Below are positions 295 to 59,210 of a stretch of DNA of 64,000 bases, piece after piece. How positions within the stretch are numbered: position 1 is the stretch's first letter; every line of letters starts with the position of its first letter. Source of the stretch: Escherichia phage vB_EcoM_G37-3; sequence record MK327941.1; one strand, 5' to 3'. Made by a program: the position numbers and the translations under genes. The notes under the pieces were generated by a model. That model saw only the letters and a list, made by a program, of their open reading frames with translations. It ran no database searches and was not told the origin of the DNA.

Positions 295-1982
295 ATGCAA
301 GATATTAAATTCACTTTCTGAACTACTCCCATGTTCAAATTGAATGTAGCGATTCAATTTTATTAGAAATGCGAGATTATTTTAGTTTTGAAGTCGAGGG
401 AGCGCGGTTTCAAAAAAGATTTAAGTATGGTGGATGGGATGGGCGTATTCGTCTTTTAGATTACAACGGAAAGCTGCCAATCGGTCTAACTAAAACCGTG
501 GGAATCTTCGCTAAAAATATGGGCTATAGCGTATGGGTAGATCCTCGCTTATTCGAAAAAGAACAAGTTACAGAAGAAGAAATTACAAAATGGTGTAATA
601 ACTTAGAATTATATTCCGGTGCTAACAGGATCACCCCTCATTGGTATCAATCAAAGGCCGTCTTTGAAGGTATTTCATCATAAACGCCGTATGTTAGTTT
701 TGCCTACGTCCGCTGGTAAATCTGCGATTGCTTGTATGTTGTCTCGTTGGTACTTAGAGAATTACGAAGGGAAAGTGTTGATCATCGTTCCTACCACGTC
801 GCTAGTGCTGCAAATGCGTGATGACTTTGTTGATTATCGCCAGTTTCCTTATGAAGCAATTCATACTATCATGAGCGGTACTAGTAAACACGTAGGTGAT
901 CGCCTGATCGTTGTTAGTACGTGGCAATCTGCATGTAAACAACCTAGTGAGTGGTTCCAACAATTCGGGATGGTTATTGTTGACGAATGTCACAAGGCCA
1001 CTGCTAAAACCTGCTAAACATCGTTACTGATATGGATCATTGTCAATTTAAGATCGGCATGACTGGTTCCCCTCGTGACGGGAAAGCTAACATGATGCAG
1101 TATGTCGGGCTTTTCGGTGATATTTCTAAGATCGTGAGTATTGACCGCCTGATGGAAGAAGGGCAGGTGACAAAACTGAAAATTAACTGTCTTTTCCTTC
1201 GTTATACCGATGAGGAATAGCGCGGTTAAGGGGCGAGAATATGCGGAAGAGATCAAGTACATTACATCTAACCCACGACGAAATAAGTTTGCTTGTAATT
1301 TGGCGCTAAAACTCGCTAAGAAGGGCGAAAACGTATTCCTGATGTTCCGCAACACTAAGCACTGAAAATTAACTGTCTTTTCCTTCGTTATACCGATGAG
1401 GAATGTAGCGCGGTTAAGGGGCGAGAATATGCGGAAGAGATCAAGTACATTACATCTAACCCACGACGAAATAAGTTTGCTTGTAATTTGGCGCTAAAAC
1501 TCGCTAAGAAGGGCGAAAACGTATTCCTGATGTTCCGCAACACTAAGCACGGAAAACTTATGTATGATGCGTTACAGAAGGTACACGACAAGGTTTATTA
1601 TATTGACGGTGGAGTTAAGACAGAAGAACGTGATGAATTTAAGAAATTAGCGGAAGGGGAAACCGGGATCATTTGCGTTGCATCCTATGGTGTGTTCTCT
1701 ACTGGTGTTTCCATCAAGAATTTGCATCATGTTATTTTCGGTCATCCAGTGAAGGAATCAACTATCGTTCGTCAGAGTATCGGTCGTGCATTGCGTAAAC
1801 ATGGTTCTAAGGATATTGCAACGGTCTGGGATCTTATAGATCATCTGGCGGTGAAGACAAAGAGCAATAATGCTAAGAAACAGTTTAGCCACCTTAATTA
1901 TGCTCTTAAACATGCGCTTGAAAGAATAAAAATTTACAACACCGATCGATTCGAATATGTCACGAAAACAATCGAGATTTAA
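295..1982 (+). pseudogene. uvsW: UvsW-like helicase gene, disrupted by three frameshifts and an internal tandem duplication
   Basis: Pieces in three frames (ATG 295; 369..683; 619..1017; 1032..1220; 1488..1982) together align along T4 UvsW (SAGKS Walker A, DECH box, C-terminal helicase domain); 1-nt frame breaks near 309-311, 672-680, 1009-1019; premature TAG at 1218. Confidence 0.85.
1176..1549 (+). repeat. imperfect direct tandem duplication (copy 1 1176..1361, 186 bp; copy 2 1362..1549, 188 bp) inside uvsW
   Basis: Copies identical except GT at 1405-1406, absent from copy 1, which gives TAG stop at 1218-1220. Confidence 0.9.
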
Positions 1983-4844: not shown

Positions 4845-5931
4845 TGTCTCAATAAAACTTTATCAGGATTATGAGGCATTTCTAAATCATCGCTTTATAG
4901 AATTGGGTGCTACCTTTGTTACAATGACTCTGCGTGATTCGATTCGTGGGGTGAACGAAGGATTGTTGCAATTCTATGATAATAAGGCGATGCATACAAA
5001 ATTAAACGGGAGAGAGATCATTCAGATTTCGCTATCCACTGCTAATACAGATGAAGTGTTTAACCGAATCTATGGGATCTCTCATAGTAATGTAACAATT
5101 GACCAAAAATCCGACAACATTTTAACATTCCAGTTAAAGAGCTATCACGAATCATTAAACCTTAAATTTTCTCGCTCATTGACAAATAACGCGGTTAATA
5201 ACGTAACTAGCATGATTGATGCCATCTATAAGGAAGTTCCTTTATGGAAACCTACTATAAAGGGTGATAACGTTGTTATTCCTCGTTGTCCGTGGGTTAG
5301 TACCATAAATGACTATATGGATTTTGTGAGGGCATACGGGCAAAGCGTAGAAACCGAGTCTTTCGTGTATTGCTGGGAAGATTTTGATGGTATAACGATC
5401 GCTGGACACGATACAATATTAAAAAATGAGCCAATACCAGCTATAATCTGTGAGCCTAGACTCATGGGGCAGTTTATTGATATGTCGCCTAATCTGATGG
5501 TTTTTAATTTCGAGTGGCAGACTAAGAGCAATGCTAAAGTTAAAAATTCATTTAGCAATGTGACATACACAACTATTGATTTTGTTACTAAGCAGTATAA
5601 TAAAATTATTGTTGGTAATGGGGATAACATTGCACACTTTGCTCATGGTGGCGCTTATGGCGATTTAACTTATAAGAATGCGTTTTTGGAAGGTTCTAAA
5701 CTTGCCACAATAGAACAATATGATTCATATGCTACCGCCGTGTGTCACGGTAATTTTTCGTTGCGCCCCGGTATGGTTATTCGATTCTTTGATGAGAAGC
5801 AACAAGCACGCAATGATTTTATTGTTGACGAAGTTGTGCATGAAATTAGCCGAGAGCAATCATTAACTCACCTGTATATGATCGGTAACAGCGAAGAATT
5901 ACAGGAAGTCAAATTTGAAGGTAAGATATAA
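4822..5931 (+). CDS. 27: baseplate hub protein gp27
   Basis: 369 aa; synteny and size. Confidence 0.8.
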   Translation: MQRTGFPNVSIKLYQDYEAFLNHRFIELGATFVTMTLRDSIRGVNEGLLQFYDNKAMHTKLNGREIIQISLSTANTDEVFNRIYGISHSNVTIDQKSDNILTFQLKSYHESLNLKFSRSLTNNAVNNVTSMIDAIYKEVPLWKPTIKGDNVVIPRCPWVSTINDYMDFVRAYGQSVETESFVYCWEDFDGITIAGHDTILKNEPIPAIICEPRLMGQFIDMSPNLMVFNFEWQTKSNAKVKNSFSNVTYTTIDFVTKQYNKIIVGNGDNIAHFAHGGAYGDLTYKNAFLEGSKLATIEQYDSYATAVCHGNFSLRPGMVIRFFDEKQQARNDFIVDEVVHEISREQSLTHLYMIGNSEELQEVKFEGKI

Positions 5932-6449
5932 TGACAGAAACTAAACCTATGTTAAAATTTGTTGTTCCTGTAAAAAAATTAGAGATAAACGGGAAACATA
6001 TCAAGATCCCAAAAATGGGGATTAAGCAACATCGATTATTAAAAGATGTTCGTAGCTGTGATGAAACATTAAAGATTCTTCTTGATTCAATCTGTCCTGG
6101 GTTAAACGCTGCCGAGTCTGAATTGGTTATGCTTAACCTTTGTGCGTTTAATGGTAAGTGTCTGGAAGAAAAAGATGGTCTTAAGCTGTCTGATGTGTAT
6201 ATTTGTACAGAGACTGAATTTACTTTAAATGGTAAAGTCTTTAAATTTAAAAATCCAATGTATACTTCTGACCCCATTATCGATGACGCTGATTTCTTGA
6301 GTCATCATTATCACGATCCTAGTGTAGACTTCCATGATTTCCCAGCTTTTATTATGGATTGGGCTACAGGATTAAGAAAAACTATTGCACTGGATACACC
6401 GGAAGGTACTATCTATGGTGGAATTAACATATTGGATCGCCTATCATGA
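5931..6449 (+). CDS. 28: baseplate hub distal subunit gp28
   Basis: 172 aa; synteny and size; start overlaps stop of 27. Confidence 0.8.
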   Translation: MTETKPMLKFVVPVKKLEINGKHIKIPKMGIKQHRLLKDVRSCDETLKILLDSICPGLNAAESELVMLNLCAFNGKCLEEKDGLKLSDVYICTETEFTLNGKVFKFKNPMYTSDPIIDDADFLSHHYHDPSVDFHDFPAFIMDWATGLRKTIALDTPEGTIYGGINILDRLS

Positions 6450-13977: not shown

Positions 13978-14006
13978 ATTATAGGGGATCGATGATCCCC
14001 TGTCAA
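13978..14006 (-). promoter_or_regulatory. early sigma70-type promoter cassette (PeSL-like, palindromic spacer)
   Basis: minus strand TTGACA-GGGGATCATCGATCCCC-TATAAT, AT-rich UP region. Confidence 0.6.
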
Positions 14007-16110: not shown

Positions 16111-16139
16111 ATTGTAGGGGAGTTATCCTCCCCTGTCAA
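16111..16139 (-). promoter_or_regulatory. early promoter cassette (PeSL-like)
   Basis: TTGACA-GGGGAGGATAACTCCCC-TACAAT on minus strand. Confidence 0.55.
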
Positions 16140-16354: not shown

Positions 16355-16383
16355 ATTATAGGGGATCTCCCGATCCCCGTCAA
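16355..16383 (-). promoter_or_regulatory. early promoter cassette (PeSL-like)
   Basis: TTGACG-GGGATCGGGAGATCCCC-TATAAT. Confidence 0.6.
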
Positions 16384-19615: not shown

Positions 19616-19644
19616 AGTATAGGGGATCACCGATCCCCTGTCAA
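19616..19644 (-). promoter_or_regulatory. early promoter cassette (PeSL-like)
   Basis: TTGACA-GGGGATCGGTGATCCCC-TATACT. Confidence 0.6.
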
Positions 19645-20980: not shown

Positions 20981-21010
20981 ATTATAGGGGAGTTTAACCT
21001 CCCTTGTCAA
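20981..21010 (-). promoter_or_regulatory. early promoter cassette (PeSL-like)
   Basis: TTGACA-AGGGAGGTTAAACTCCCC-TATAAT. Confidence 0.6.
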
Positions 21011-21375: not shown

Positions 21376-21404
21376 AGTATAGGGGATACGTGATCCCCTG
21401 TCAA
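21376..21404 (-). promoter_or_regulatory. early promoter cassette (PeSL-like)
   Basis: TTGACA-GGGGATCACGTATCCCC-TATACT. Confidence 0.6.
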
Positions 21405-24799: not shown

Positions 24800-25410
24800 T
24801 TATTTCGCGACCTTTGGATTTCGCCGCAGACCGGAATGTATTTGCGCTATACAACAATAAGAAACATTAAACATATCAGCTATAATTTGCTTCTTAACTT
24901 TTCCTTTAAGCCGCATTATTTCTTCGACTTGCGCATTTGTCAGTTTTGCCCGTGAGTGGTTTTCACCGACATTGTTATTGAGTCCAGTTCTAAATGAATG
25001 TCTCATATTTTCTAGTAAGGTTACTATTTCTAGATTCCACACATAATTGCAGGTTTTACACCATTGATGTGATTAACCTCAAGTCCGGTAACGTCTCCTA
25101 GAAATGCATTTGCTACAAGTCGATGTATCTTTTCGGCTTTAACTGAGATTTTACCATTGTCTTTTTGTTTTGACAATGTTGAATAATAATATCCATATCG
25201 GTCTAAAATTGGTTTTATTATTTTACCAACACGTTTTTGTTTTACGAGCTTAATATTACCGGGAGAAACTTCTCTATAAAATTCGATACTTCGGTCAATA
25301 GATCTCAATCTACCATAATTAGAGATTTCATACCACGGATAACCTACAGCTTGTCTCCATTCTTCCGGCGCTGGTAATATGATATTATCATCTTTTGTTT
25401 CCATTGTCAA
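24800..25410 (-). pseudogene. HNH homing endonuclease (NUMOD4 + HNH) split by a -1 frameshift
   Basis: N-part YPWYEISNYGRLRS ... VNHINGVK; C-part CNYVWNLEIVTLLENMRH continues in another frame; shift at TTTT 25054-25057. Confidence 0.6.
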
Positions 25411-30447: not shown

Positions 30448-30666
30448 CTACTTTTTAATGACAAGTTCGAATTTTGCTACCTTGCGTCCTCGTTTATTGA
30501 AAGCAACCCACGGACGGTTTTCAATGTAGAACAATTCTTCACCAATAATGAATACTGGCTGATTGTAAAGGCGACCCATCAGGTCACGCTGGCGAATGGT
30601 AGTAGATTCGTATACTTCGCCCACTACAAAGTGTTTGCTGATAGAGTCGGTGCAAGTAAATTTCAT
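30448..30666 (-). CDS. hypothetical protein (72 aa); paralog of 59498..59704
   Basis: shared C-terminal VAKFE motif. Confidence 0.55.
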   Translation of the reverse strand: MKFTCTDSISKHFVVGEVYESTTIRQRDLMGRLYNQPVFIIGEELFYIENRPWVAFNKRGRKVAKFELVIKK

Positions 30667-31054: not shown

Positions 31055-31531
31055 TTAATCATGACCGTGATTTGCAATATCCGCTCGCGTCTTATCTTTG
31101 TGATTTCCTACGTCAAAGACACGATAACCATTTTCACGCAAAACTTTAATCACTTCTGGGTTATCCTCAAAGACTCCGACAACTTCATCTTTATCAAAGG
31201 ATTTAATTACCTCTAATTTGATGTGATAGTCTTTACGGGAATCGGTACGGCCTCTCATAAAGATTTTATCAAAACACACCCCGTTAGAAATTAACCAATC
31301 AATTGTTTCCATGTAAGCATGTGAACTTCGTCCGGTGAGGATGTAAATCAAATGCCCGTTGTCGGAAAGAGCATTAATAACACGAATTACATCGTAAATG
31401 GGGGAATCTCCCCCACATGCCTTGTTATATTCGATCCATGACTCGACTTTATCAAGATTTTCGGTTGGCATCTTTGCTAGTCGATGCGTTGGATCTGTGA
31501 TCGTAAAATCTAAATCGACAAAATATATCAT
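31055..31531 (-). CDS. HAD-superfamily phosphatase-like protein (158 aa)
   Basis: N-terminal VDLDFTIT (DxD) motif. Confidence 0.6.
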   Translation of the reverse strand: MIYFVDLDFTITDPTHRLAKMPTENLDKVESWIEYNKACGGDSPIYDVIRVINALSDNGHLIYILTGRSSHAYMETIDWLISNGVCFDKIFMRGRTDSRKDYHIKLEVIKSFDKDEVVGVFEDNPEVIKVLRENGYRVFDVGNHKDKTRADIANHGHD

Positions 31532-32691
31532 AGATATTTCCCGAATCGGTTGTAGTCGTCGTCTGTTAAATCGGTATTAACCTGAGATACCAGATACATA
31601 ATCTCTACTTCTTGCGCTGCATTCTGTACTTCGTCAGAGTTCAACCATTTACGCATCCACGGTAACGGATGACGACGAACACTAAACGGGCTTTTCAGTC
31701 CGGCAGCACGCATACGGGAATCTGCCAGGTATTCTACATAGGTTTTCAGAATTTCCGGTGACAGGTTAGGAATTGCCCCCATTGCGAATAGGTGGTCTAC
31801 CCATTCTTTTTCTTGCTCGACAACATCCAGAAAGATTTTCGTTGCTTCACCTTCAAGTTCTTCCGCAATCTGTTTCCACTCATCACCATCAACCCCCGTT
31901 TGCCATTGACGAATAATGTATTGTGTGCCTTTTAAGTGAAGTTGTTCATCACGCGCAATAAATTTCATGATCTTCGCGTTACCTTCCAGTAAACCACGTT
32001 CGGCAAAGCTGAAAGTACATGCAAAGGACACATAAAAACGAATTGCTTCCAGTGCATTGACGCAGTGTGCACACAGATAAATCGAAGCCATCAGATCTCG
32101 TTTTGTATCTTCAAAAAATCTTCTTGCATCATCTAATGCTGTCTGGTCGTCTCGTTCTTCCCAATAGCGGAGATCTTCTTTTGCATTCTCATACTTACGA
32201 ATCCAATAAAGAACATCATCATAATATTTCCCGATAGATTCCGCTCGCTTCATGATAGCAGGGTTATCGATGATCTGGTCGAACTCACTAGCCGGATCAA
32301 TGAAACAGTTACGCATAATGTGTGTATAGCTTCGGCTATGAATCGTTTCGCTGAATGTCCATGTTTGCAACCATGTATCGAGAGTTGGATCAGATACAAT
32401 TGGACCAAATACACGGGCTGGCGCTCTGCCTTGAATCGAATCTAGCAAAGTTTGATAACGTAAGTTCTCGGTGAAGAAACGCTTTTCAACATCGCTCATA
32501 TTCAGATATTGAATGCGGTCAGTTGCAAGTGAAATCTCTTCTGGACGCCAGAAAAATGACAACTGCTTCTCGATCAACTCTTCAAATACTTGATGACGCT
32601 GAATATCATAACGAGCAATCCCTAAATCACTACCAAAAAACATCGGTTCGGTCATAATATCAACATGTTCACGATTAAATACGCTCATCAC
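31528..32691 (-). CDS. nrdB: ribonucleotide reductase small subunit
   Basis: 387 aa uninterrupted; synteny. Confidence 0.9.
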   Translation of the reverse strand: MMSVFNREHVDIMTEPMFFGSDLGIARYDIQRHQVFEELIEKQLSFFWRPEEISLATDRIQYLNMSDVEKRFFTENLRYQTLLDSIQGRAPARVFGPIVSDPTLDTWLQTWTFSETIHSRSYTHIMRNCFIDPASEFDQIIDNPAIMKRAESIGKYYDDVLYWIRKYENAKEDLRYWEERDDQTALDDARRFFEDTKRDLMASIYLCAHCVNALEAIRFYVSFACTFSFAERGLLEGNAKIMKFIARDEQLHLKGTQYIIRQWQTGVDGDEWKQIAEELEGEATKIFLDVVEQEKEWVDHLFAMGAIPNLSPEILKTYVEYLADSRMRAAGLKSPFSVRRHPLPWMRKWLNSDEVQNAAQEVEIMYLVSQVNTDLTDDDYNRFGKYL

Positions 32692-33230
32692 TATTCTCCA
32701 TCAATTTTGTTTATATTGTAACCCATGTTGCCTTTTTCTATTTCTCTCAACGCAACTGAATTAAACGCTCTTGCCGCATCTTGTTCGCTATCAAATCTCC
32801 CTATATGAACACTCTTTCCTTGTATATTAATATGAACTAGCCATCTATTTGTGTACTTACACCAACTTACCCCGTTATATTTTGATGATGCACCTTTAAA
32901 TTTAGTTCTGTTTCGATTGTTGACAGAATAATCAGTACCTCGTAAATTTTCTATATGATTGTTCAGCTTGTTTCGGTCGATGTGATCTATAACTTTAGGC
33001 TTATGCCCGTGAAACATATGATAAATCACATGATGTATTAACTTCTTTCTATTGTCTACTGTTAGTTGAAGATATCCCCCATTATGTGGACTTCCAACCT
33101 CATCACCAACTTTAACTTTATTGCTTGTTGAAACCTTTCTGAAAAGTTTACCATCTTCGTATTTAAATAGATAATGATACCTTTCGTAAAGTATTCGGTC
33201 CTCTTCCGTATAATGTATTACCTCATACAT
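32691..33230 (-). CDS. HNH + AP2-domain homing endonuclease (mobE-like position)
   Basis: 179 aa; IDHIDRNKLNN (HNH) and YNGVSWCK...HIGRFDSEQDAARAFN (AP2-like). Confidence 0.7.
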   Translation of the reverse strand: MYEVIHYTEEDRILYERYHYLFKYEDGKLFRKVSTSNKVKVGDEVGSPHNGGYLQLTVDNRKKLIHHVIYHMFHGHKPKVIDHIDRNKLNNHIENLRGTDYSVNNRNRTKFKGASSKYNGVSWCKYTNRWLVHINIQGKSVHIGRFDSEQDAARAFNSVALREIEKGNMGYNINKIDGE

Positions 33231-33606
33231 AATATTTTACTCACTTTTTAACACAAAAGAACTTAGTATTTCTGTTAACTTCGCTATCCTGCTGCAATTC
33301 CTGCACAGCTTCAAAACAATTTTGATGTGATGAAAACTCTACGCTGGTAACAGTTCCTTTATTATATACGCCTACGCTAACGGAAAGCAATAACCATACA
33401 GTAGCCATTATCCTACAACCTCAAAGCATTTATCATCAGGAAGAATAGCCCATTCTACGCCATATTCATCCTCAACGTAGTAGCAAGCCCCATCATGTCG
33501 AGCATCATATACATCACCGACAACAAAGCTATCAGCTAGCTAAAAATCTACAGCAACACATTTTAATTTGGTCATAATAAAATCCTCACTTGTTTTTGAT
33601 GGTTGT

Positions 33607-33635
33607 ATTATAGCGGGGATTTCTCCCCGCGTCAA
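33607..33635 (-). promoter_or_regulatory. early promoter cassette (PeSL-like) downstream of nrdA
   Basis: TTGACG-CGGGGAGAAATCCCCGC-TATAAT. Confidence 0.5.
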
Positions 33636-33643
33636 CAGTTATT

Positions 33644-35887
33644 TTACAGCTTACAGGATGAACACTCGCTAGCGTCTTCCGTACCATCAGCACCATCACG
33701 CACGTTAGCGTAATACAGTGTCTTGAGGCCGTAATATTGAGCAAACAGCATATCATCTAACACATCAGCAATATCGACTTTACCAGTCTTATAAGTGCTT
33801 GGATCATAGGATGTATTGGAACTAATCGCCTGATCTACAAACTTCTGCATGATCGCTGCCAGTGTCAGATAGGGCTTGTTACCTTTCTTGATCAGTGTCC
33901 AAAGCAGGTCAATAACATCAGCATTATTCTCTACGTTCGGAATAACCTGATTAAATTGCCCTTCTTTCGATCCTTTAACCGATACAATCCCGCGAGGCGG
34001 TTCAATACCGTTTGTGCTGTTAGATACCTGAGAAGATGACTCACAAGGCATCAGCGCCGAAAGCGTACTGTTACGAATGCCATATTTTTTCAGGTCTTCG
34101 CGCAGTTCTTCCCAATCCATCTCATACACCGGATCAACCAGTTCATCTACTGTCTTTTTGTACCAGTCGATAGGAAGTTCACCGCGACCATAGCGTGTTT
34201 CGTGCATCAGTTCGCAAGCACCCTTCTCTTTAGCCAGTCGCACACTAGCCTTAATCAGAGCATATTGCAAGCGTTCAAACGTTTTATGCGTAAACTCGTT
34301 AGCGTCTTCATATGTGAAGAAATTATCTGCTAGATATGATGCAAAGTTAGTCACGCCAACGCCCAGAGATCGACGTTTTTTGGCTGTCAGAGCTTGTTCT
34401 ACAGGATAATCCTGATAATCTAACAGGTTGTCAAGTGCACGCACCATAACCATAGCAATGCGTTCTACTTCTTCCATATTTTCGATATCGAAATTACCTA
34501 AAACATATGCTGCCAAAGTACATAGGCTAATTTCTGAATCATCACGACCCATCGGTTTTGTTGGCAGAGCAATTTCACAACACAGGTTAGATTGTTTAAT
34601 CGGTGCTACATTACGAATAAACGCCCCGTGATTGTTCATGTTGTCTGTGAACGCTGGATAGATTCGACCAGTGTTAAAACGTTCAATTGCCACCGCTAAA
34701 AACAGGTCTTCGGCTTTAACACGAGTTTTACGAACACTCGGATCTTTTTCCAGTTTTTCGTAAAGCTGACGGAAACCTTCCTCATCTCGGAAGTACAGAT
34801 CCCACAACAAGCCACCTGCAACATCTGGACTAAACAGAGTAATGTAATCCCGTTTAAGGAATCGCTCTACCATCAGGTTATTAATCTGTACGCCGTAATC
34901 AAGATGACGAATGCGGTTATCTTCTACCCCCTTATTGTTCTTTAACACAATCAGACTTTCAAACTCTAAATGCCACATTGGGTAATAGAGAGTCGCCGCC
35001 CCGCCACGAATACCGCCTTGTGAGCATGACTTAACGGCAGTCTGAAAATGTTTCCAGAATGGGATAACTCCAGTATGACGAACTTCACCATGCCCGATCT
35101 TAGATCCTTCCGCGCGAATCATGCCAGCGTTGATACCGATACCAGCACGCTTGCTAATATACTTGATGATTGCATTTGCGGTTTCATTAATACCCTGCAA
35201 TGAGTCATCACTTTCAATCACCACACACGAACTAAATTGGCGTGTTGGGGTACGCACACCTGCCATAATCGGAGTAGGCAGAGAGATTTGCTTATTCGCA
35301 ACCGCATTATAAAAATCAATCACATGTTCAAGTCGATTTTCTGTCTCTTCTTGATGCAAGCACATACCGATCAGCATATACGCAAATTGCGGTGTTTCGA
35401 TGATTTTCTTAGTGCTGCGATCCTGAACAAGATATTTCTCTTTTAACTGCATCGCACCAGCATAGGTCATTTTAAAATCAAGTTTATGGTCGATGAATTT
35501 CTCCAGATATTCCACTTCTTCACGGGAATACTTTTGCAGAATTTCACGATCATATTTTCCGGTTGCAATATTACGCTCAATATGGCTGTAAAAATCAATC
35601 GGTTGGAATTGACCGTATACTGATTTGCGAAGCGCGAACATTGCAAGGTTACTTGCTACATATTGATAATCAGGTGTTTCTACAGTAATGTTATCTGCTG
35701 CGACCTTAATCAATACTTTCTGGATATCATTGGTAGACATACCTTCTGTCAGAAGTGGTTCAACCATATCAAACAATTCATATGGATCAACGTTATGACC
35801 TTCGGCTGCCGCTTCCAGAATTTTCATTACTTTTTCTTTTTCAAACGGAACAGTCAGACCGGAAGACTTAACAACATTTTTAATCAT
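33644..35887 (-). CDS. nrdA: ribonucleotide reductase large subunit
   Basis: 747 aa; ATP-cone N-terminus, C-terminal CSSCKL-type tail. Confidence 0.9.
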   Translation of the reverse strand: MIKNVVKSSGLTVPFEKEKVMKILEAAAEGHNVDPYELFDMVEPLLTEGMSTNDIQKVLIKVAADNITVETPDYQYVASNLAMFALRKSVYGQFQPIDFYSHIERNIATGKYDREILQKYSREEVEYLEKFIDHKLDFKMTYAGAMQLKEKYLVQDRSTKKIIETPQFAYMLIGMCLHQEETENRLEHVIDFYNAVANKQISLPTPIMAGVRTPTRQFSSCVVIESDDSLQGINETANAIIKYISKRAGIGINAGMIRAEGSKIGHGEVRHTGVIPFWKHFQTAVKSCSQGGIRGGAATLYYPMWHLEFESLIVLKNNKGVEDNRIRHLDYGVQINNLMVERFLKRDYITLFSPDVAGGLLWDLYFRDEEGFRQLYEKLEKDPSVRKTRVKAEDLFLAVAIERFNTGRIYPAFTDNMNNHGAFIRNVAPIKQSNLCCEIALPTKPMGRDDSEISLCTLAAYVLGNFDIENMEEVERIAMVMVRALDNLLDYQDYPVEQALTAKKRRSLGVGVTNFASYLADNFFTYEDANEFTHKTFERLQYALIKASVRLAKEKGACELMHETRYGRGELPIDWYKKTVDELVDPVYEMDWEELREDLKKYGIRNSTLSALMPCESSSQVSNSTNGIEPPRGIVSVKGSKEGQFNQVIPNVENNADVIDLLWTLIKKGNKPYLTLAAIMQKFVDQAISSNTSYDPSTYKTGKVDIADVLDDMLFAQYYGLKTLYYANVRDGADGTEDASECSSCKL

Positions 35888-35956: not shown

Positions 35957-37177
35957 TTATACTGCCATTTGAGCGGTGATCGCTGGATGGCTTTGATAGT
36001 TGTGAATTTTAAAATCTTTCGGAGTCTTTGTCAATACCTCATCTAAAGATTTAAATTCCGGCAACTCAATTGTTGGTTTATCAAACGGAACACGGCTTAA
36101 CTGTTCCATAACTTGATCAAAATGGTTTTTGTAAATGTGAGTATCTCCACCAGAGAAAATCAGTTCTCCTACCTCAAGATCACACATTTTCGCTATGATG
36201 TGAGTTAACAGCGCATAGCTGGCGACGTTAAAGGGCAAGCCCAAAAAGCAGTCTACGCTTCGCTGAAACCACATACAAGACAGTTTACCTTCATTGACGT
36301 AGAATTGTACGAACGGATGACATACACCCAATACAGCATTATGTGTTCCTTGTACGTTCCATGAGTCAATGATGATACGTCGATCCGTTGGATTGTTTTT
36401 AATTTGTTCAATCACGTTTTGTAACTGGTCTTCCCAAATCTTCGGGCGATAGACATATTCTTCATCGTCTTTAGTGCTTGATGTGTCTACGTCCATACTA
36501 ACAAACATCGTGGTATCCGGTGCTATAATATCCCCACCCAGATAATCACTATCAAGCAGATAACCGAAATAACCATCATCTACCCATTCCTGGAATCCCC
36601 ACAAGCAATATGCATCATTAACAAAATTAGATTGAGTCTTCCAGTGGTCTGCTACCAGAATATAATCAAACTCTTCATAACGCATACCACGCCAGATAGC
36701 ACATAAACGGTCTTCTGTGTCATTGGTTGGCGTAAAGTCTTCTACCCACGGGTGCTTAAATGTATGTGTATATTTGCTCTTAACGCGCTTAATTTTGATT
36801 TCACCATGTGGATGAATCGGTTTGCGTCGCCACGCCATACCATACATATTGCCGACATTATAACCATTGAATCGCAAGGGATTCTTTTCTTTCATATCAA
36901 GACAGTTGCCGCGCCAAATATCAAAGGCTTCCTCGTCAAACTTGCCGCGTGTAATTTCCTGTAAGCGACGGCGGTCAAGTGATCCATCCATAAACCATAG
37001 CAATTCGCCAATTACAGAGGCTGTAGCCATCTTTTTAGTGGTCAGTAATGGGAAACCCTTGCTTAAATCAATTCGCATCTCTGCGCCGAATTTAGAGAGC
37101 GTACCTACCCCCGTGCGGTCTTCACGAGGACAGCCATTATCAAGAACATCACGCAATAGTTTCAAATATTCTTTCAT
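35957..37177 (-). CDS. td: thymidylate synthase with about 120-aa internal insertion
   Basis: 406 aa; DRTGVGT, DRRIIIDSWN, CHPFVQFYV, FLGLPFNVASYALL; insertion between WRRK and DQLQNV. Confidence 0.85.
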   Translation of the reverse strand: MKEYLKLLRDVLDNGCPREDRTGVGTLSKFGAEMRIDLSKGFPLLTTKKMATASVIGELLWFMDGSLDRRRLQEITRGKFDEEAFDIWRGNCLDMKEKNPLRFNGYNVGNMYGMAWRRKPIHPHGEIKIKRVKSKYTHTFKHPWVEDFTPTNDTEDRLCAIWRGMRYEEFDYILVADHWKTQSNFVNDAYCLWGFQEWVDDGYFGYLLDSDYLGGDIIAPDTTMFVSMDVDTSSTKDDEEYVYRPKIWEDQLQNVIEQIKNNPTDRRIIIDSWNVQGTHNAVLGVCHPFVQFYVNEGKLSCMWFQRSVDCFLGLPFNVASYALLTHIIAKMCDLEVGELIFSGGDTHIYKNHFDQVMEQLSRVPFDKPTIELPEFKSLDEVLTKTPKDFKIHNYQSHPAITAQMAV

Positions 37178-39783: not shown

Positions 39784-40758
39784 TTACATCCCTAACAGAG
39801 CGTCAAGATCATCCAGATCAGAAGCGGAGGAAGTACCGCCACCCAGGTCCAGAGATGCCATCAGATCATCAGCGGAAGAATCTAACGCCGTGCTAGCTGC
39901 GTTAATACCAACTACAGTGCTAACCGCGTTAATACCAGCATCGAATGCATTCATCTGTGCGTCAAAATCGTCAAGCTGGCTGTTAATCGCTGCCGCAGCA
40001 CTGGAAGCCGCAGCACCAGCTACCATAGACACACCCATAGTTTTCTTAAATTTGGTTTCCAGTTCATCGAACGGTTTAAACTGGCTAGGCGCTACAATCT
40101 CACTCAGGTCAACCATGTTTTCCATCAGATATTTCTGATATGCTTCGTCTTCAATTTTCGGAAGCTGTGATTGCTGCATGAAACGAGAATCATCATAGTT
40201 CTGGTGTTTATCAACCTTCTTAGCTTTCAGGAGGAAGTTAGCACCGGAGAACACACAAGTTACATCTACCGGAACTTCGCCCATATCGGTATTCACGTTC
40301 ACCATTGCAACGATCTTATCATAAATTTTCTGACCGAAGCGGAATTTGAATACCTTACCTTCATTTTCTGGTGCTTGAGGATCTTTCAGTACCAGAATAT
40401 TTGCGTAGTAAGAGGCTTTACGCTTAATCAGTTGCCATTCGGTTTTATCGGTATTGTACAGGTCTTTTTCGTTAATATATTTGCACACAGGGCAAGAATC
40501 AAAATCACCGTGGGTGCTTGAGCAGTTTTCCCAATACCATTTACCATTAACTTTGAAGGAATGGTTTACCAGTTTCACAATCGGCAGACCGTCTTCTGTC
40601 TTAGACGGCAGGAAGCGAATCAGGGCTTCACCGTTACCTGCTGCATCAGTCTTAATCTTCCACTCTTTCGGATCTTCTTTGGAGAAACCGTTGCCACCTT
40701 TCAGTGCGGCCAGTTGAGCTTGCAGTTTGGAAGAATCTTGGCGTTTAAACATATTCAC
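39784..40758 (-). CDS. 32: single-stranded DNA-binding protein gp32
   Basis: 324 aa; [19 protein letters not shown] zinc site, acidic C-terminus. Confidence 0.9.
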
Positions 40759-43779: not shown

Positions 43780-44361
43780 TCATCCTCTTTTTGGAAAATT
43801 TAAATAAGCATACTCGCCAACTATTTCATGTGCTGCACGGTCATAAGCCTTAGCCGCCTCAACTTCTGTCTCAAAGTATCCTAGATGTATATTCTTTCGA
43901 TTGATAACAATATACGCCTTCCACGGCTTTTTCTTGCTTGGTGATAATGATACACCTTTATATTTGCTATGGCAAGCCTTTTTCTTTGAGACGTTAAACT
44001 GATTTTGCTGTTCGGTTGCTTCTCTCATGTTTGACGGTCTATTGTTAGTTTTGTCTTGGTCTATGTGATCTATTCGTTCAACCTGAGTACCATACTCTAA
44101 AAACCAGACAACTCTATGTACAAACAGATTAAGTTTATGACCATTGTTGTAAAATGTAAAGTATAAATATCCTTCTTTATGGAGACATACCCTTACCACA
44201 TCACCTTTTTTGTATATGGACCCTTCTTTTCGGAATCCAGCAGCTACAGAATCCTTTAAATGGTATAATATTCCATCGACATGATAGAATCTACCTTTTA
44301 TCGCTTTCTGTGTCTCGATATCCCAAAATTTTGTTTTTGCCACAACAAACACCTCACACAA
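43780..44361 (-). CDS. HNH + AP2-domain homing endonuclease (193 aa)
   Basis: IDHIDQDKTNN (HNH) and YKGVS...HLGYFETEVEAAKAYD (AP2-like); paralog of 32691..33230. Confidence 0.7.
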   Translation of the reverse strand: MCEVFVVAKTKFWDIETQKAIKGRFYHVDGILYHLKDSVAAGFRKEGSIYKKGDVVRVCLHKEGYLYFTFYNNGHKLNLFVHRVVWFLEYGTQVERIDHIDQDKTNNRPSNMREATEQQNQFNVSKKKACHSKYKGVSLSPSKKKPWKAYIVINRKNIHLGYFETEVEAAKAYDRAAHEIVGEYAYLNFPKRG

Positions 44362-59181: not shown

Positions 59182-59210
59182 AGTATAGGGGATCGGCGAT
59201 CCCCTGTCAA
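59182..59210 (-). promoter_or_regulatory. early promoter cassette (PeSL-like, palindromic spacer)
   Basis: TTGACA-GGGGATCGCCGATCCCC-TATACT. Confidence 0.6.

Follow-up and report, generated by a model that had tools for sequence, protein, structure and literature searches.

An HNH-AP2 endonuclease gene linked to a divergent nrdB tract, and a disrupted small ORFan, in the nrdA-nrdB interval of a Krischvirus genome

Introduction

HNH-AP2 homing endonucleases were reportedly first described by Magnani et al. in 2004. Within the T4-related phages, one gene of this class has been listed for RB49 and two for JSE (Petrov et al. 2010, PMC2993671, Table 5). The gene for the small subunit of ribonucleotide reductase, nrdB, is a known target of several endonuclease families (PMC2988022), and the hef gene of phage U5 and I-TevIII are further examples of its repeated and independent choice as a homing target. 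In T4, mobE occupies the interval between nrdA and nrdB; it is promoterless and co-transcribed with nrdA, and its product nicks nrdB at nt 122-126, with co-conversion of the flanks (Wilson and Edgell 2009, PMC2790892). In RB49 and phi1, transcription cassettes named PeSL have been described (Arbiol et al. 2010, PMC2839356; Comeau et al. 2014, PMC4122927), which are defined by sigma-70 -35 and -10 elements, a stable G/C stem-loop and, downstream, a Shine-Dalgarno (SD) sequence and the start codon of an ORFan (PMC2839356). RB49-type genomes contain 0 tRNA genes (PMC2993671).

The DNA considered here, called the window, is a 64,000-nt stretch from Escherichia phage vB_EcoM_G37-3 (MK327941.1), assigned by taxon and by comparison of synteny to Krischvirus, the RB49-like group of T4-type coliphages. 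The locus under study is the nrdA-nrdB 'hyperplastic' interval of such a phage, and it represents a well-documented but ordinary instance of known phage biology. The account that we favour, and that as a whole we consider probable, combines an operon headed by a PeSL cassette, invasion by a homing endonuclease gene, a null allele of a first small gene (ORF-A) and a repeat-mediated deletion among the remaining ones.

Organization of the nrdA-nrdB interval

The positions of the features are collected in Table 1; the coordinates given in an earlier note on this DNA, made by inspection of the sequence, were all correct. The variable interval is bounded upstream by nrdA. Between nrdA and the endonuclease gene lie 413 bp, about 335 bp of which are taken up by two conserved small genes. 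The earlier note had treated this region as a gap or leader of 410 bp with a single interrupted ORF; its inventory missed the intact 55-aa gene, and the interval actually consists of two small genes, with one further gene deleted.

Table 1. Features of the nrdA-nrdB interval and of the second HNH-AP2 locus (positions in the window).
Feature	Position	Strand	Basis or remarks
nrdA, ribonucleotide reductase large subunit, 747 aa	33644..35887	-	ORF list; nrdA annotation at the syntenic position in RB49 and G2494
PeSL early promoter (predicted)	33607..33635	-	TTGACG 33635-33630, 17-nt spacer, TATAAT 33612-33607
ORF-A, 55 codons, RB49p233 homolog (phrog_16302)	33408..33575	-	ATG at 33575, TAG 33542-33540, TAA 33410-33408
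Intact 55-aa small gene (phrog_5579), ORF-B/C hybrid	33241..33408	-	Formed from the paralogs RB49p232 and RB49p231
Free-standing HNH_3+AP2 homing endonuclease gene (predicted), 179 aa	32691..33230	-	Pfam, PDB match, AlphaFold model
nrdB, ribonucleotide reductase small subunit	31528..32688	-	ATG start at 32688
Divergent nrdB tract, first 278 nt	32411..32688	-	Co-inherited with the endonuclease gene
Second HNH_3+AP2 gene (phrog_99)	43780..44361	-	Flanked by the rnh-side small ORF and the long tail-fibre gene

Relatives have three small ORFs in this interval, and the middle one is missing from the window, at a repeat junction. Alignments place a 174-bp deletion between the shared 5' ends (ATGGCTACnnTATGGTTATTG, 33408-33388) of RB49p232 and RB49p231, which leaves the hybrid gene; the same hybrid junction is present in phage FL20. 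Homologous recombination would have removed the middle gene, acting on the nearly identical 5' ends of the two paralogs. ORF-B was found in 53 isolate records and is broken in none of them (0/53).

The PeSL-like promoter proposed in the earlier note is well supported. It agrees with the sigma-70 consensus at 11 of 12 positions, joint best within the 4.7 kb scanned, and its spacer can form the hairpin GCGGGGA-GAAA-TCCCCGC, with a 7-bp G/C stem (33630-33613); the 101-nt region 33560..33660 around it has a folding z-score of -3.8. Its sequence shows no differences across all relatives. All the elements that define the cassettes are found at the locus: the sigma-70 -35 and -10 consensus shared with RB49 and phi1, the hairpin of a G-run and a C-run lying between them, and the SD and ORFan start codon that follow; nothing essential sets the window copy apart, which is a typical one. 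A role as recombination site is also shared, since in phage KMB43 a methyltransferase cassette lies between two identical PeSL copies; however, neither the endonuclease insertion nor the ORF-B deletion made use of PeSL. On the coding strand ahead of nrdB no further sigma-70 match of at least 11/12 was found, and T4-type late promoters (TATAAATA) and MotA-box middle promoters are both absent from the coding strand between 31400 and 36100. Located just 3' of nrdA, PeSL would probably head a single operon formed by ORF-A, the hybrid gene, the endonuclease gene and, in all likelihood, nrdB.

The endonuclease gene has only a weak SD and lacks a promoter of its own, so that it would depend on PeSL, about 400 bp upstream. 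This dependence might suggest that the endonuclease gene has an untranslated regulatory leader of 410 bp with a decayed ORF inside it, but such a reading is extremely improbable: the same small genes separate nrdA from nrdB in endonuclease-free genomes, one of them is intact in the window, and each of the two falls into a conserved family of phage proteins. Moreover, the region has no Rfam match and no notable repeat; indeed, neither Rfam (at E<=1) nor a search for repeats in 32400-33900 returned anything besides the PeSL hairpin, and the supposed leader holds no hidden RNA element.

The HNH-AP2 gene

The predicted endonuclease has the two-domain architecture of the HNH-AP2 class of T4-related phages, with a central HNH_3 domain and a C-terminal AP2 domain, and belongs to the same PHROG (phrog_99). 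The HNH_3 domain scores 38.2 bits (cut-off 24.8), while the AP2 domain, with 30.8 bits and E=3.8e-7, is slightly below the Pfam cut-off of 33.3; the latter domain also matches plant WRI1 among PDB sequences (E=3e-6). For an AlphaFold (AF2) model with pLDDT 89, the closest PDB structures by Foldseek are plant AP2/ERF domains, the best being AtERF1 (rmsd 1.2 A over 51 columns, prob 1.00). In the HNH core, the residues that show no variation among 34 homologs (D82, H83, N91, N95, R97) are all retained. The GC content of the gene is 33.9%, against 42% in its flanks, and its TAG stop lies 2 nt ahead of the nrdB ATG.

Besides the window, the gene is carried by two of 58 isolate genomes (G2494 and G5211), and the site is empty in RB49, PHB13, pEJ01 and FL20. 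Many metagenome contigs carry the gene as well: an identical protein occurs in at least 50 public assembly blocks, and its context agrees among the nine places displayed; this look-up considers exact protein matches only and is thus insensitive to variation or decay of the gene. Relatives of the protein are found at other junctions of conserved genes, for example at gp7/gp8, dam and the helicase loader gene. Paralogs at such junctions within the genus are a feature shared with the class, whereas the window allele differs by its position at the nrdB junction and by an identity of at most 47% to the other Krischvirus copies. Judging from this distribution, the gene is a sporadic mobile element. 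For the nrdB-junction allele, no description of a target or of a linkage to an nrdB tract was found in the publications consulted.

The window contains a second HNH_3+AP2 gene, which is also present in pEJ01. The earlier note had pointed to it as a paralog. It does adjoin the long tail-fibre gene, and the two proteins share 37% identity over 117 aa, which places them in the same family but excludes a recent duplication.

Linkage to the 5' part of nrdB

Downstream of the endonuclease gene, the first 278 nt of nrdB diverge from RB49 at 45 diagnostic sites over 37 codons (29 synonymous, 8 non-synonymous), while past nt ~300 the gene is identical to the RB49/pEJ01 type. Over nt 1-300, nrdB of the window has 99.7% identity to the two carrier isolates and at most 87% to the other full-length matches in the phage collection. 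The tract is common to 10 of 10 carrier sequences; none of them reverts at sites 186-278, and some show the 'empty' allele in patches at nt 66-174. Its 3' edge is sharp, and beyond the tract the flanks differ between the window and G2494. This segment looks like a co-conversion tract. Three hallmarks of a free-standing homing endonuclease occur together at this locus: an intact nuclease motif, a sporadic presence among close relatives and the apparent co-conversion of flanking markers.

According to the mechanism that we propose, a free-standing endonuclease gene would have inserted itself directly in front of the nrdB start codon. During mixed infection, its product would nick or cut the nrdB allele of an endonuclease-free phage, most likely at nt ~186-278, and repair by recombination from the carrier genome would copy not only the endonuclease gene but also the 5' stretch of nrdB that lies in between. 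The presence of the same divergent 278-nt segment in every carrier would then follow from its being copied along during repair, and the copied segment would render the carrier resistant to its own enzyme. The target and immunity region is therefore predicted to be nt 186-278 of nrdB (32503-32411); an always-linked and sharply bounded tract in this way yields a testable prediction for the target, nt ~186-278 of the RB49-type gene.

The linkage between gene and tract could in principle also derive from hitch-hiking after one ancestral recombination rather than from repeated homing. More radically, the HNH-AP2 protein could have been domesticated for DNA binding or regulation, or could be an endonuclease that has lost its function, and would then be no active homing element but a simple neighbour of a recombinant nrdB allele. 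AP2 domains do bind DNA, and many phage endonuclease genes, T4 I-TevIII among them, are inactive relics; nevertheless, we regard this explanation as improbable, given that every HNH core residue invariant in the 34 homologs is conserved, that the gene is sporadic, compositionally foreign and placed on different local backgrounds, and that its relatives sit at other conserved-gene junctions, as expected of mobile endonucleases.

Comparison with known nrdB-targeting endonucleases

The earlier note had placed the 179-aa gene at the position of mobE. The location is indeed the same nrdA-nrdB interval, but no kinship with MobE came to light, since BLASTP of the HNH-AP2 protein against T4 MobE gave no significant alignment. 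The protein was accordingly dropped as a candidate MobE homolog; its location between nrdA and nrdB is a feature shared with that family. MobE is characterized by an N-terminal HNH domain of the PF01844 family, with NUMOD3 in its full-length homolog. No internal terminator like that of mobE was found. The parallels are of another kind: neither gene has its own promoter, the HNH-AP2 gene appearing to rely on the one upstream, and in both cases the 5' flank of nrdB is co-inherited, the presumed target of the HNH-AP2 enzyme also lying in 5' nrdB.

Genuine MobE homologs are found in the same nrdA-nrdB slot in SSG23, SFHK24 and phiS; the SSG23 endonuclease has 48% identity to MobE and 57% to NrdB.1. 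The mobE homologs of SSG23 and phiS differ from the HNH-AP2 gene in their insertion junction. Within one genus, two unrelated selfish endonucleases, of HNH-AP2 and MobE type, alternate at a site located a few bases ahead of the nrdB start codon. The hef product and I-TevIII belong to other protein families and use other insertion sites, and I-TevIII is intron-encoded. The HNH-AP2 gene would add a third, unrelated endonuclease family to those exploiting nrdB.

ORF-A and its amber codon

ORF-A and its in-frame amber are present as the earlier note had described them. The note had also asked whether the interrupted frame is coding in relatives and whether the HNH gene is universal at this site. 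The frame is conserved (phrog_16302, E=2e-41), with pN/pS of about 0.08 among intact copies, a value that indicates strong purifying selection, and the HNH gene is rare; therefore, neither answer speaks against the earlier description. A full-length single tblastn match to ORF-A is present in at least 51 of 58 isolate records. A search of 5.8 billion proteins gave no matches outside Krischvirus-like sequences, so ORF-A is a genus-restricted ORFan; Pfam returned for it a sub-threshold hint of DUF7244 and nothing else, and NCBIfam has no name for any of the four proteins.

Codon 12 of ORF-A, TAG in the window, is GAA or GAG (Glu) in relatives, with a Glu codon in all 24 other alleles read (15 + 9). 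In IMG/VR, scans for relatives of ORF-A and for the sequence around the amber recovered two contigs only, both with a Glu codon. The amber is a single G->T change away from the GAG allele, and the gene is otherwise nucleotide-identical to that of phiS. Several relatives carry other disruptions of the same gene: an additional T within the T-run that the amber lengthens, in FL04 and kaaroe, which brings a TGA into frame at codon 12; a -A in pEJ01; a loss of 2 nt in FL20 and FL37; a +T in AV108; the loss of 16 nt in two metagenome contigs, each of another sample; and a change of the start codon from ATG to ATA in one contig. The amber does not, then, stand as a designed feature, being a private single-base change in a gene that relatives break in other ways.

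In the favoured account, the private GAG->TAG nonsense mutation would leave a peptide of only 11 residues, and ORF-A of this phage would therefore be a null allele, probably without phenotypic function. Since the amber is unconserved, no tRNA gene and no other in-frame TAG are present and relatives carry independent knock-outs, the codon is best read as a null allele or a base-call error rather than as recoding. No tRNA gene was found in the window, and the window counterparts of 99 pEJ01 CDS contain no other in-frame TAG; genome-wide amber recoding was ruled out on these grounds and on the lack of tRNA genes in RB49-type genomes.

Readthrough of this single amber, through a suppressor host or tRNA or in a programmed and possibly regulated manner, would still allow full-length ORF-A to be made. 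A stop codon followed by C is a weak termination context. The nucleotide after the ORF-A amber is C, the frame downstream of it shows no decay, and TAG is nearly unused as a stop in the window, where, apart from the endonuclease gene, it ends one of the 85 genes examined. On the other hand, the stop is kept in 0 of the 24 other alleles, tRNA genes are absent from both window and genus, the window has no other in-frame TAG, and the frameshifts, deletion and start-codon loss of relatives are beyond rescue by readthrough, so that we consider this explanation very unlikely.

Sequencing or assembly error, with an intact ORF-A (GAG) in the true phage, is an unlikely alternative to a null allele, although one that deserves some weight. 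The change lengthens a T-run (TTTTG to TTTTT), a context prone to miscalls, and the remainder of ORF-A is undecayed and identical to phiS. Elsewhere in the window, uvsW is multiply frameshifted and one HNH gene is frameshifted, so a base-calling or assembly error at 33542 retains some likelihood; the differences from pEJ01 in uvsW and in another HNH gene are of homopolymer length. Conversely, the change in ORF-A is a substitution and not an indel, and disrupted genes number only 3 of about 100 in the window, a poor fit to a generally error-ridden assembly. Furthermore, the same gene has been knocked out independently, in real-looking form, in other genomes, and two of these knock-outs recur in independent sequences, the +T of FL04 and kaaroe and the 16-nt deletion of the two samples. 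For the null allele that we prefer, the main importance of the amber lies in a caveat for annotation, as a pseudogene rather than a recoding event.

Altogether, at least seven independent null alleles of ORF-A can be counted, comprising a nonsense mutation, four kinds of indel, the 16-nt deletion and the start-codon loss. Isolates and uncultured metagenome contigs alike carry such alleles, and three of the alleles touch the T-run at codons 10-12; in the small genes next to ORF-A no disruption is seen. Recurrent selection for loss of function of the RB49p233 family is an unlikely explanation of this pattern; if it were true, the product might be of use in some hosts but a burden in others, for instance by triggering a host defence system, and the T-run could serve as a simple on/off contingency site. 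The repeated and independent loss of a 55-codon ORFan is a small but real lead to a gene that may be conditionally costly.

Organization of the nrdA-nrdB interval

The region has matches in 58 phage records (90-97% identity), each of them a Krischvirus (RB49-like, T4-type, Straboviridae), and a 25-kb stretch of the window shows at most 98% identity to any record of the phage collection. The minus-strand order is td, nrdA, the interval under study and nrdB. Each component of the interval is of a known kind: a promoter-early stem-loop (PeSL), a free-standing HNH-AP2 homing endonuclease gene and a pseudogenised ORFan. All the coordinates of the earlier note (179-aa ORF, promoter, interrupted ORF with its TAG, second HNH-AP2 gene) are correct, but the region upstream of the endonuclease gene had been misread. 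The thymidylate synthase gene (35957..37177, minus strand) encodes 406 aa, its RB49 counterpart about 410 aa; the protein is presumably about 120 aa longer than usual ThyA proteins, the extra segment being in the middle.

Features of the nrdA-nrdB region and the second HNH_3+AP2 gene
Feature	Position	Strand	Basis
nrdA	33644..35887	-	ORF list
PeSL promoter, TTGACG-17 nt-TATAAT	33635..33607	-	11/12 consensus positions, tied best in 4.7 kb
ORF-A (RB49p233 homolog)	ATG 33575 to TAA 33410-33408; TAG 33542-33540	-	Sequence reading
Intact hybrid gene, 55 aa, left by 174-bp deletion	33241..33408		phrog_5579, E=5e-24
HNH_3+AP2 endonuclease gene, 179 aa	32691..33230	-	Pfam HNH_3 38.2 bits; AP2 30.8 bits
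nrdB	ATG at 32688, end at 31528	-	ORF list
Second HNH_3+AP2 gene	43780..44361		37% identity over 117 aa to the endonuclease protein

Most relatives, RB49 and G2494 among them, have three small genes 3' of nrdA, translationally coupled and 168, 174 and 168 bp long, namely RB49p233 (ORF-A), p232 (ORF-B) and p231 (ORF-C). The paralogs ORF-B and ORF-C are almost identical at their 5' ends (ATGGCTACnnTATGGTTATTG), and exactly 174 bp between these repeats are absent from the window, leaving an intact hybrid gene that the earlier note had overlooked. The same deletion junction is present in phage FL20; ORF-B is unbroken in 53 isolate records. [quoted passage not shown]

The HNH-AP2 endonuclease and its mobility

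The endonuclease protein matches PHROG 99 'HNH endonuclease' (E=3e-48). Its AP2 Pfam match (E=3.8e-7) lies just under the cut-off of 33.3 bits; the assignment is independently confirmed by a phmmer search of the PDB, where the AP2 protein WRI1 is the sole match (E=3e-6), and by the predicted structure. In the AlphaFold2 model (34 homologs, pLDDT 89.1) residues 121-166 form a three-stranded sheet and a helix, and the closest PDB structures are AP2/ERF domains from plants (for AtERF1, an rmsd of 1.2 A over 51 columns with prob 1.00), so that the HNH and AP2-like content originally proposed for this gene is upheld. The second HNH-AP2 gene is also real, with just limited similarity to the first (Table). 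Phage pEJ01 carries a third HNH_3+AP2 gene between its gene 32-like and helicase genes (40090-40686 of that record, syntenic with window position ~40000), which is absent from the window; therefore, the family fills at least three slots in Krischvirus, each with presence/absence variation. This class had already been catalogued in RB49-type genomes (PMC2993671 Table 5).

G2494 and G5211 encode the same protein with 100% identity. The next best phage matches have at most 47% identity and are found at other loci, among them those beside dam and beside the helicase-loader gene; in a large protein database, the closest relative that is distinct (53% identity) is encoded between gp7 and gp8 on a different T4-like contig. 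An exact-sequence look-up returned at least 50 blocks of public assemblies, and in each of the nine places shown nrdA is followed by small ORFs, then by the endonuclease gene and nrdB. The gene is not universal at this site: in RB49, PHB13, pEJ01 and FL20 the site is empty, ORF-C being followed by nrdB after 15 bp. Its GC content is 33.9%, versus 42% for nrdA and nrdB.

Most telling is that sequence variation over the first 278 nt of nrdB follows the presence of the endonuclease gene. Over the first 300 nt, the window differs from G2494 at 1 of 300 positions, and no other full-length match in the phage collection exceeds 87% identity. Compared with RB49, the window tract has 45 diagnostic sites in 37 codons (29 synonymous and 8 non-synonymous); these stop abruptly at nt 278, beyond which window, RB49 and pEJ01 are identical over more than 240 nt. 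The tract is common to all ten carrier sequences, and no shared block of this kind was seen upstream of the endonuclease gene. The backgrounds differ: in the window ORF-A is phiS-like and distal nrdB RB49-like, whereas in G2494 ORF-A is RB49-like and distal nrdB is unlike both window and RB49. A linked nrdB tract on differing backgrounds appears to be the signature of intronless homing with co-conversion. Some carriers have patches of the 'empty' allele at nrdB nt 66-174, but none of the ten has them at nt 186-278, which points to a predicted target, with the matching immunity polymorphism, at about nt 186-278. A tract as clean as this, with a predicted target, is worth a specialist's glance.

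Relation to T4 MobE

In T4 the order is nrdA-mobE-nrdB.1-nrdB; the mobE gene is promoterless and co-transcribed with nrdA, and MobE nicks T2 nrdB at nt 122-126, the flanks being co-converted (PMC2790892). The window endonuclease has no detectable similarity to T4 MobE, which carries another HNH domain (PF01844) in place of HNH_3. The mobE position assigned to the gene by the earlier note can be retained in a restricted sense: the protein is, by analogy, a positional and functional counterpart of MobE, but falls outside the MobE family. True MobE homologs do occupy the same slot in Krischvirus, with 224 aa in Shigella phage SSG23 (also in SFHK24) and 215 aa in phiS, and in AV108 and FL15 a gene annotated 'homing endonuclease', whose start matches the SSG23 gene, lies directly 3' of ORF-A. 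The HNH-AP2 and MobE-type endonucleases have different junctions. Several endonuclease classes, for example mobE, hef and I-TevIII, are known to target nrdB independently (PMC2988022), and one slot held alternately by two unrelated families merits specialist attention.

The SSG23 endonuclease (1526-2200 of its record) aligns first with T4 MobE (residues 10-129, 48% identity) and then with T4 NrdB.1 (residues 143-223, 57% identity; T4 record 5720-6417); therefore, an ancestral full-length gene appears to have been divided in two, giving T4 mobE and nrdB.1. A NUMOD3 motif is present in NrdB.1.

PeSL promoter and expression

A PeSL is defined as a sigma-70 consensus promoter with a G-run/C-run stem-loop, mostly between the -35 and -10 elements, followed downstream by an SD and the start codon of an ORFan (PMC2839356). 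The PeSL-like promoter first noticed upstream of ORF-A fits this definition on sequence grounds: a hairpin GCGGGGA/GAAA/TCCCCGC lies inside its spacer, and the surrounding 101 nt (33560..33660) have a folding z=-3.8. In phage KMB43 an 852-bp DNA cytosine methyltransferase gene is found between nrdA and ORF-A with a copy of this PeSL on either side, the two copies being identical (913-941 and 1811-1839 of that record), a clean, textbook case of PeSL-mediated insertion or shuffling. Seven further PeSL-type promoters are present on the minus strand of the window (13978-14006, 16111-16139, 16355-16383, 19616-19644, 20981-21010, 21376-21404 and 59182-59210), each combining TTGAC(A/G) with a -10 element that resembles TATAAT and having in the spacer a G-run/C-run hairpin (-8 to -11 kcal/mol).

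On the coding strand from the PeSL to nrdB, neither another sigma-70 match of at least 11/12 nor a late or middle promoter motif was found, and the SD ahead of the endonuclease gene is weak (GAG, 9 nt before the ATG), so that this gene probably relies for its expression on the PeSL operon, just as mobE relies on nrdA. The SD of nrdB is now a GGAG provided by the 3' end of the endonuclease gene.

ORF-A and its amber codon

ORF-A, rightly called protein-like, matches phrog_16302 (E=2e-41) and is found in all 58 Krischvirus records; a search of 5.8 billion proteins gave no homolog outside the genus. Because pN/pS is about 0.08 among intact copies, ORF-A is a real protein-coding gene. Codon 12 is GAA or GAG in 24/24 other alleles read, and the window gene differs from that of phiS at one nucleotide only, a G->T substitution that turns GAG into TAG and extends a T-run. 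As the TAG is not followed by any in-frame ATG, GTG or TTG, the C-terminal portion cannot be translated separately. Nothing speaks for readthrough by design: no tRNA gene was found in the window, nor a further in-frame TAG on comparison with 99 pEJ01 proteins, and RB49-type genomes have no tRNA genes (PMC2993671 Table 2).

ORF-A has been broken independently elsewhere. FL04 and kaaroe have an additional T in the T-run where the window's change falls, leading to TGA at codon 12 (FL38 has the same pattern at the tblastn level); pEJ01 lacks one A, FL20 and FL37 have a 2-nt deletion and AV108 an inserted T. Two metagenome contigs of about 166 kb from different samples (L023 and L025, ORF-A at ~2480-2650) have in common a 2-nt insertion and a 16-nt deletion that ends at the T-run, and in a third contig (L022) the start ATG is changed to ATA; thus, inactivation extends to uncultured phages. 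Such repeated, independent inactivation may also deserve a specialist's look. The amber codon is best interpreted as a further null allele of an often-lost ORFan. It may also be a base-call error, as uvsW (at several points) and an HNH gene are frameshifted in the window, although just these two and ORF-A are disrupted out of about 100 genes.

As for stop codon usage, the 85 window genes shared with pEJ01 end in TAA (61), TGA (23) and TAG (1, a 72-aa ORF ending at 30448); TAG is also the stop codon of the HNH-AP2 gene, which was acquired horizontally. The uvsW-type helicase gene (295..1982, plus strand) is split into at least three ORFs, compared with an intact 500-aa gene in pEJ01. Homopolymers at 307, 673 and 1006 each differ by a single base, the stretch 1073-1093 is scrambled and 186 bp are directly duplicated near 1175; the gene could be a true pseudogene or a local assembly problem. 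The HNH-type endonuclease gene with the 'EVNHINGVK' motif (24800..25410, minus strand) is split into ORFs of 126 and 80 aa by a T5->T4 change at 25054, and pEJ01 has an intact 203-aa ORF at this site.
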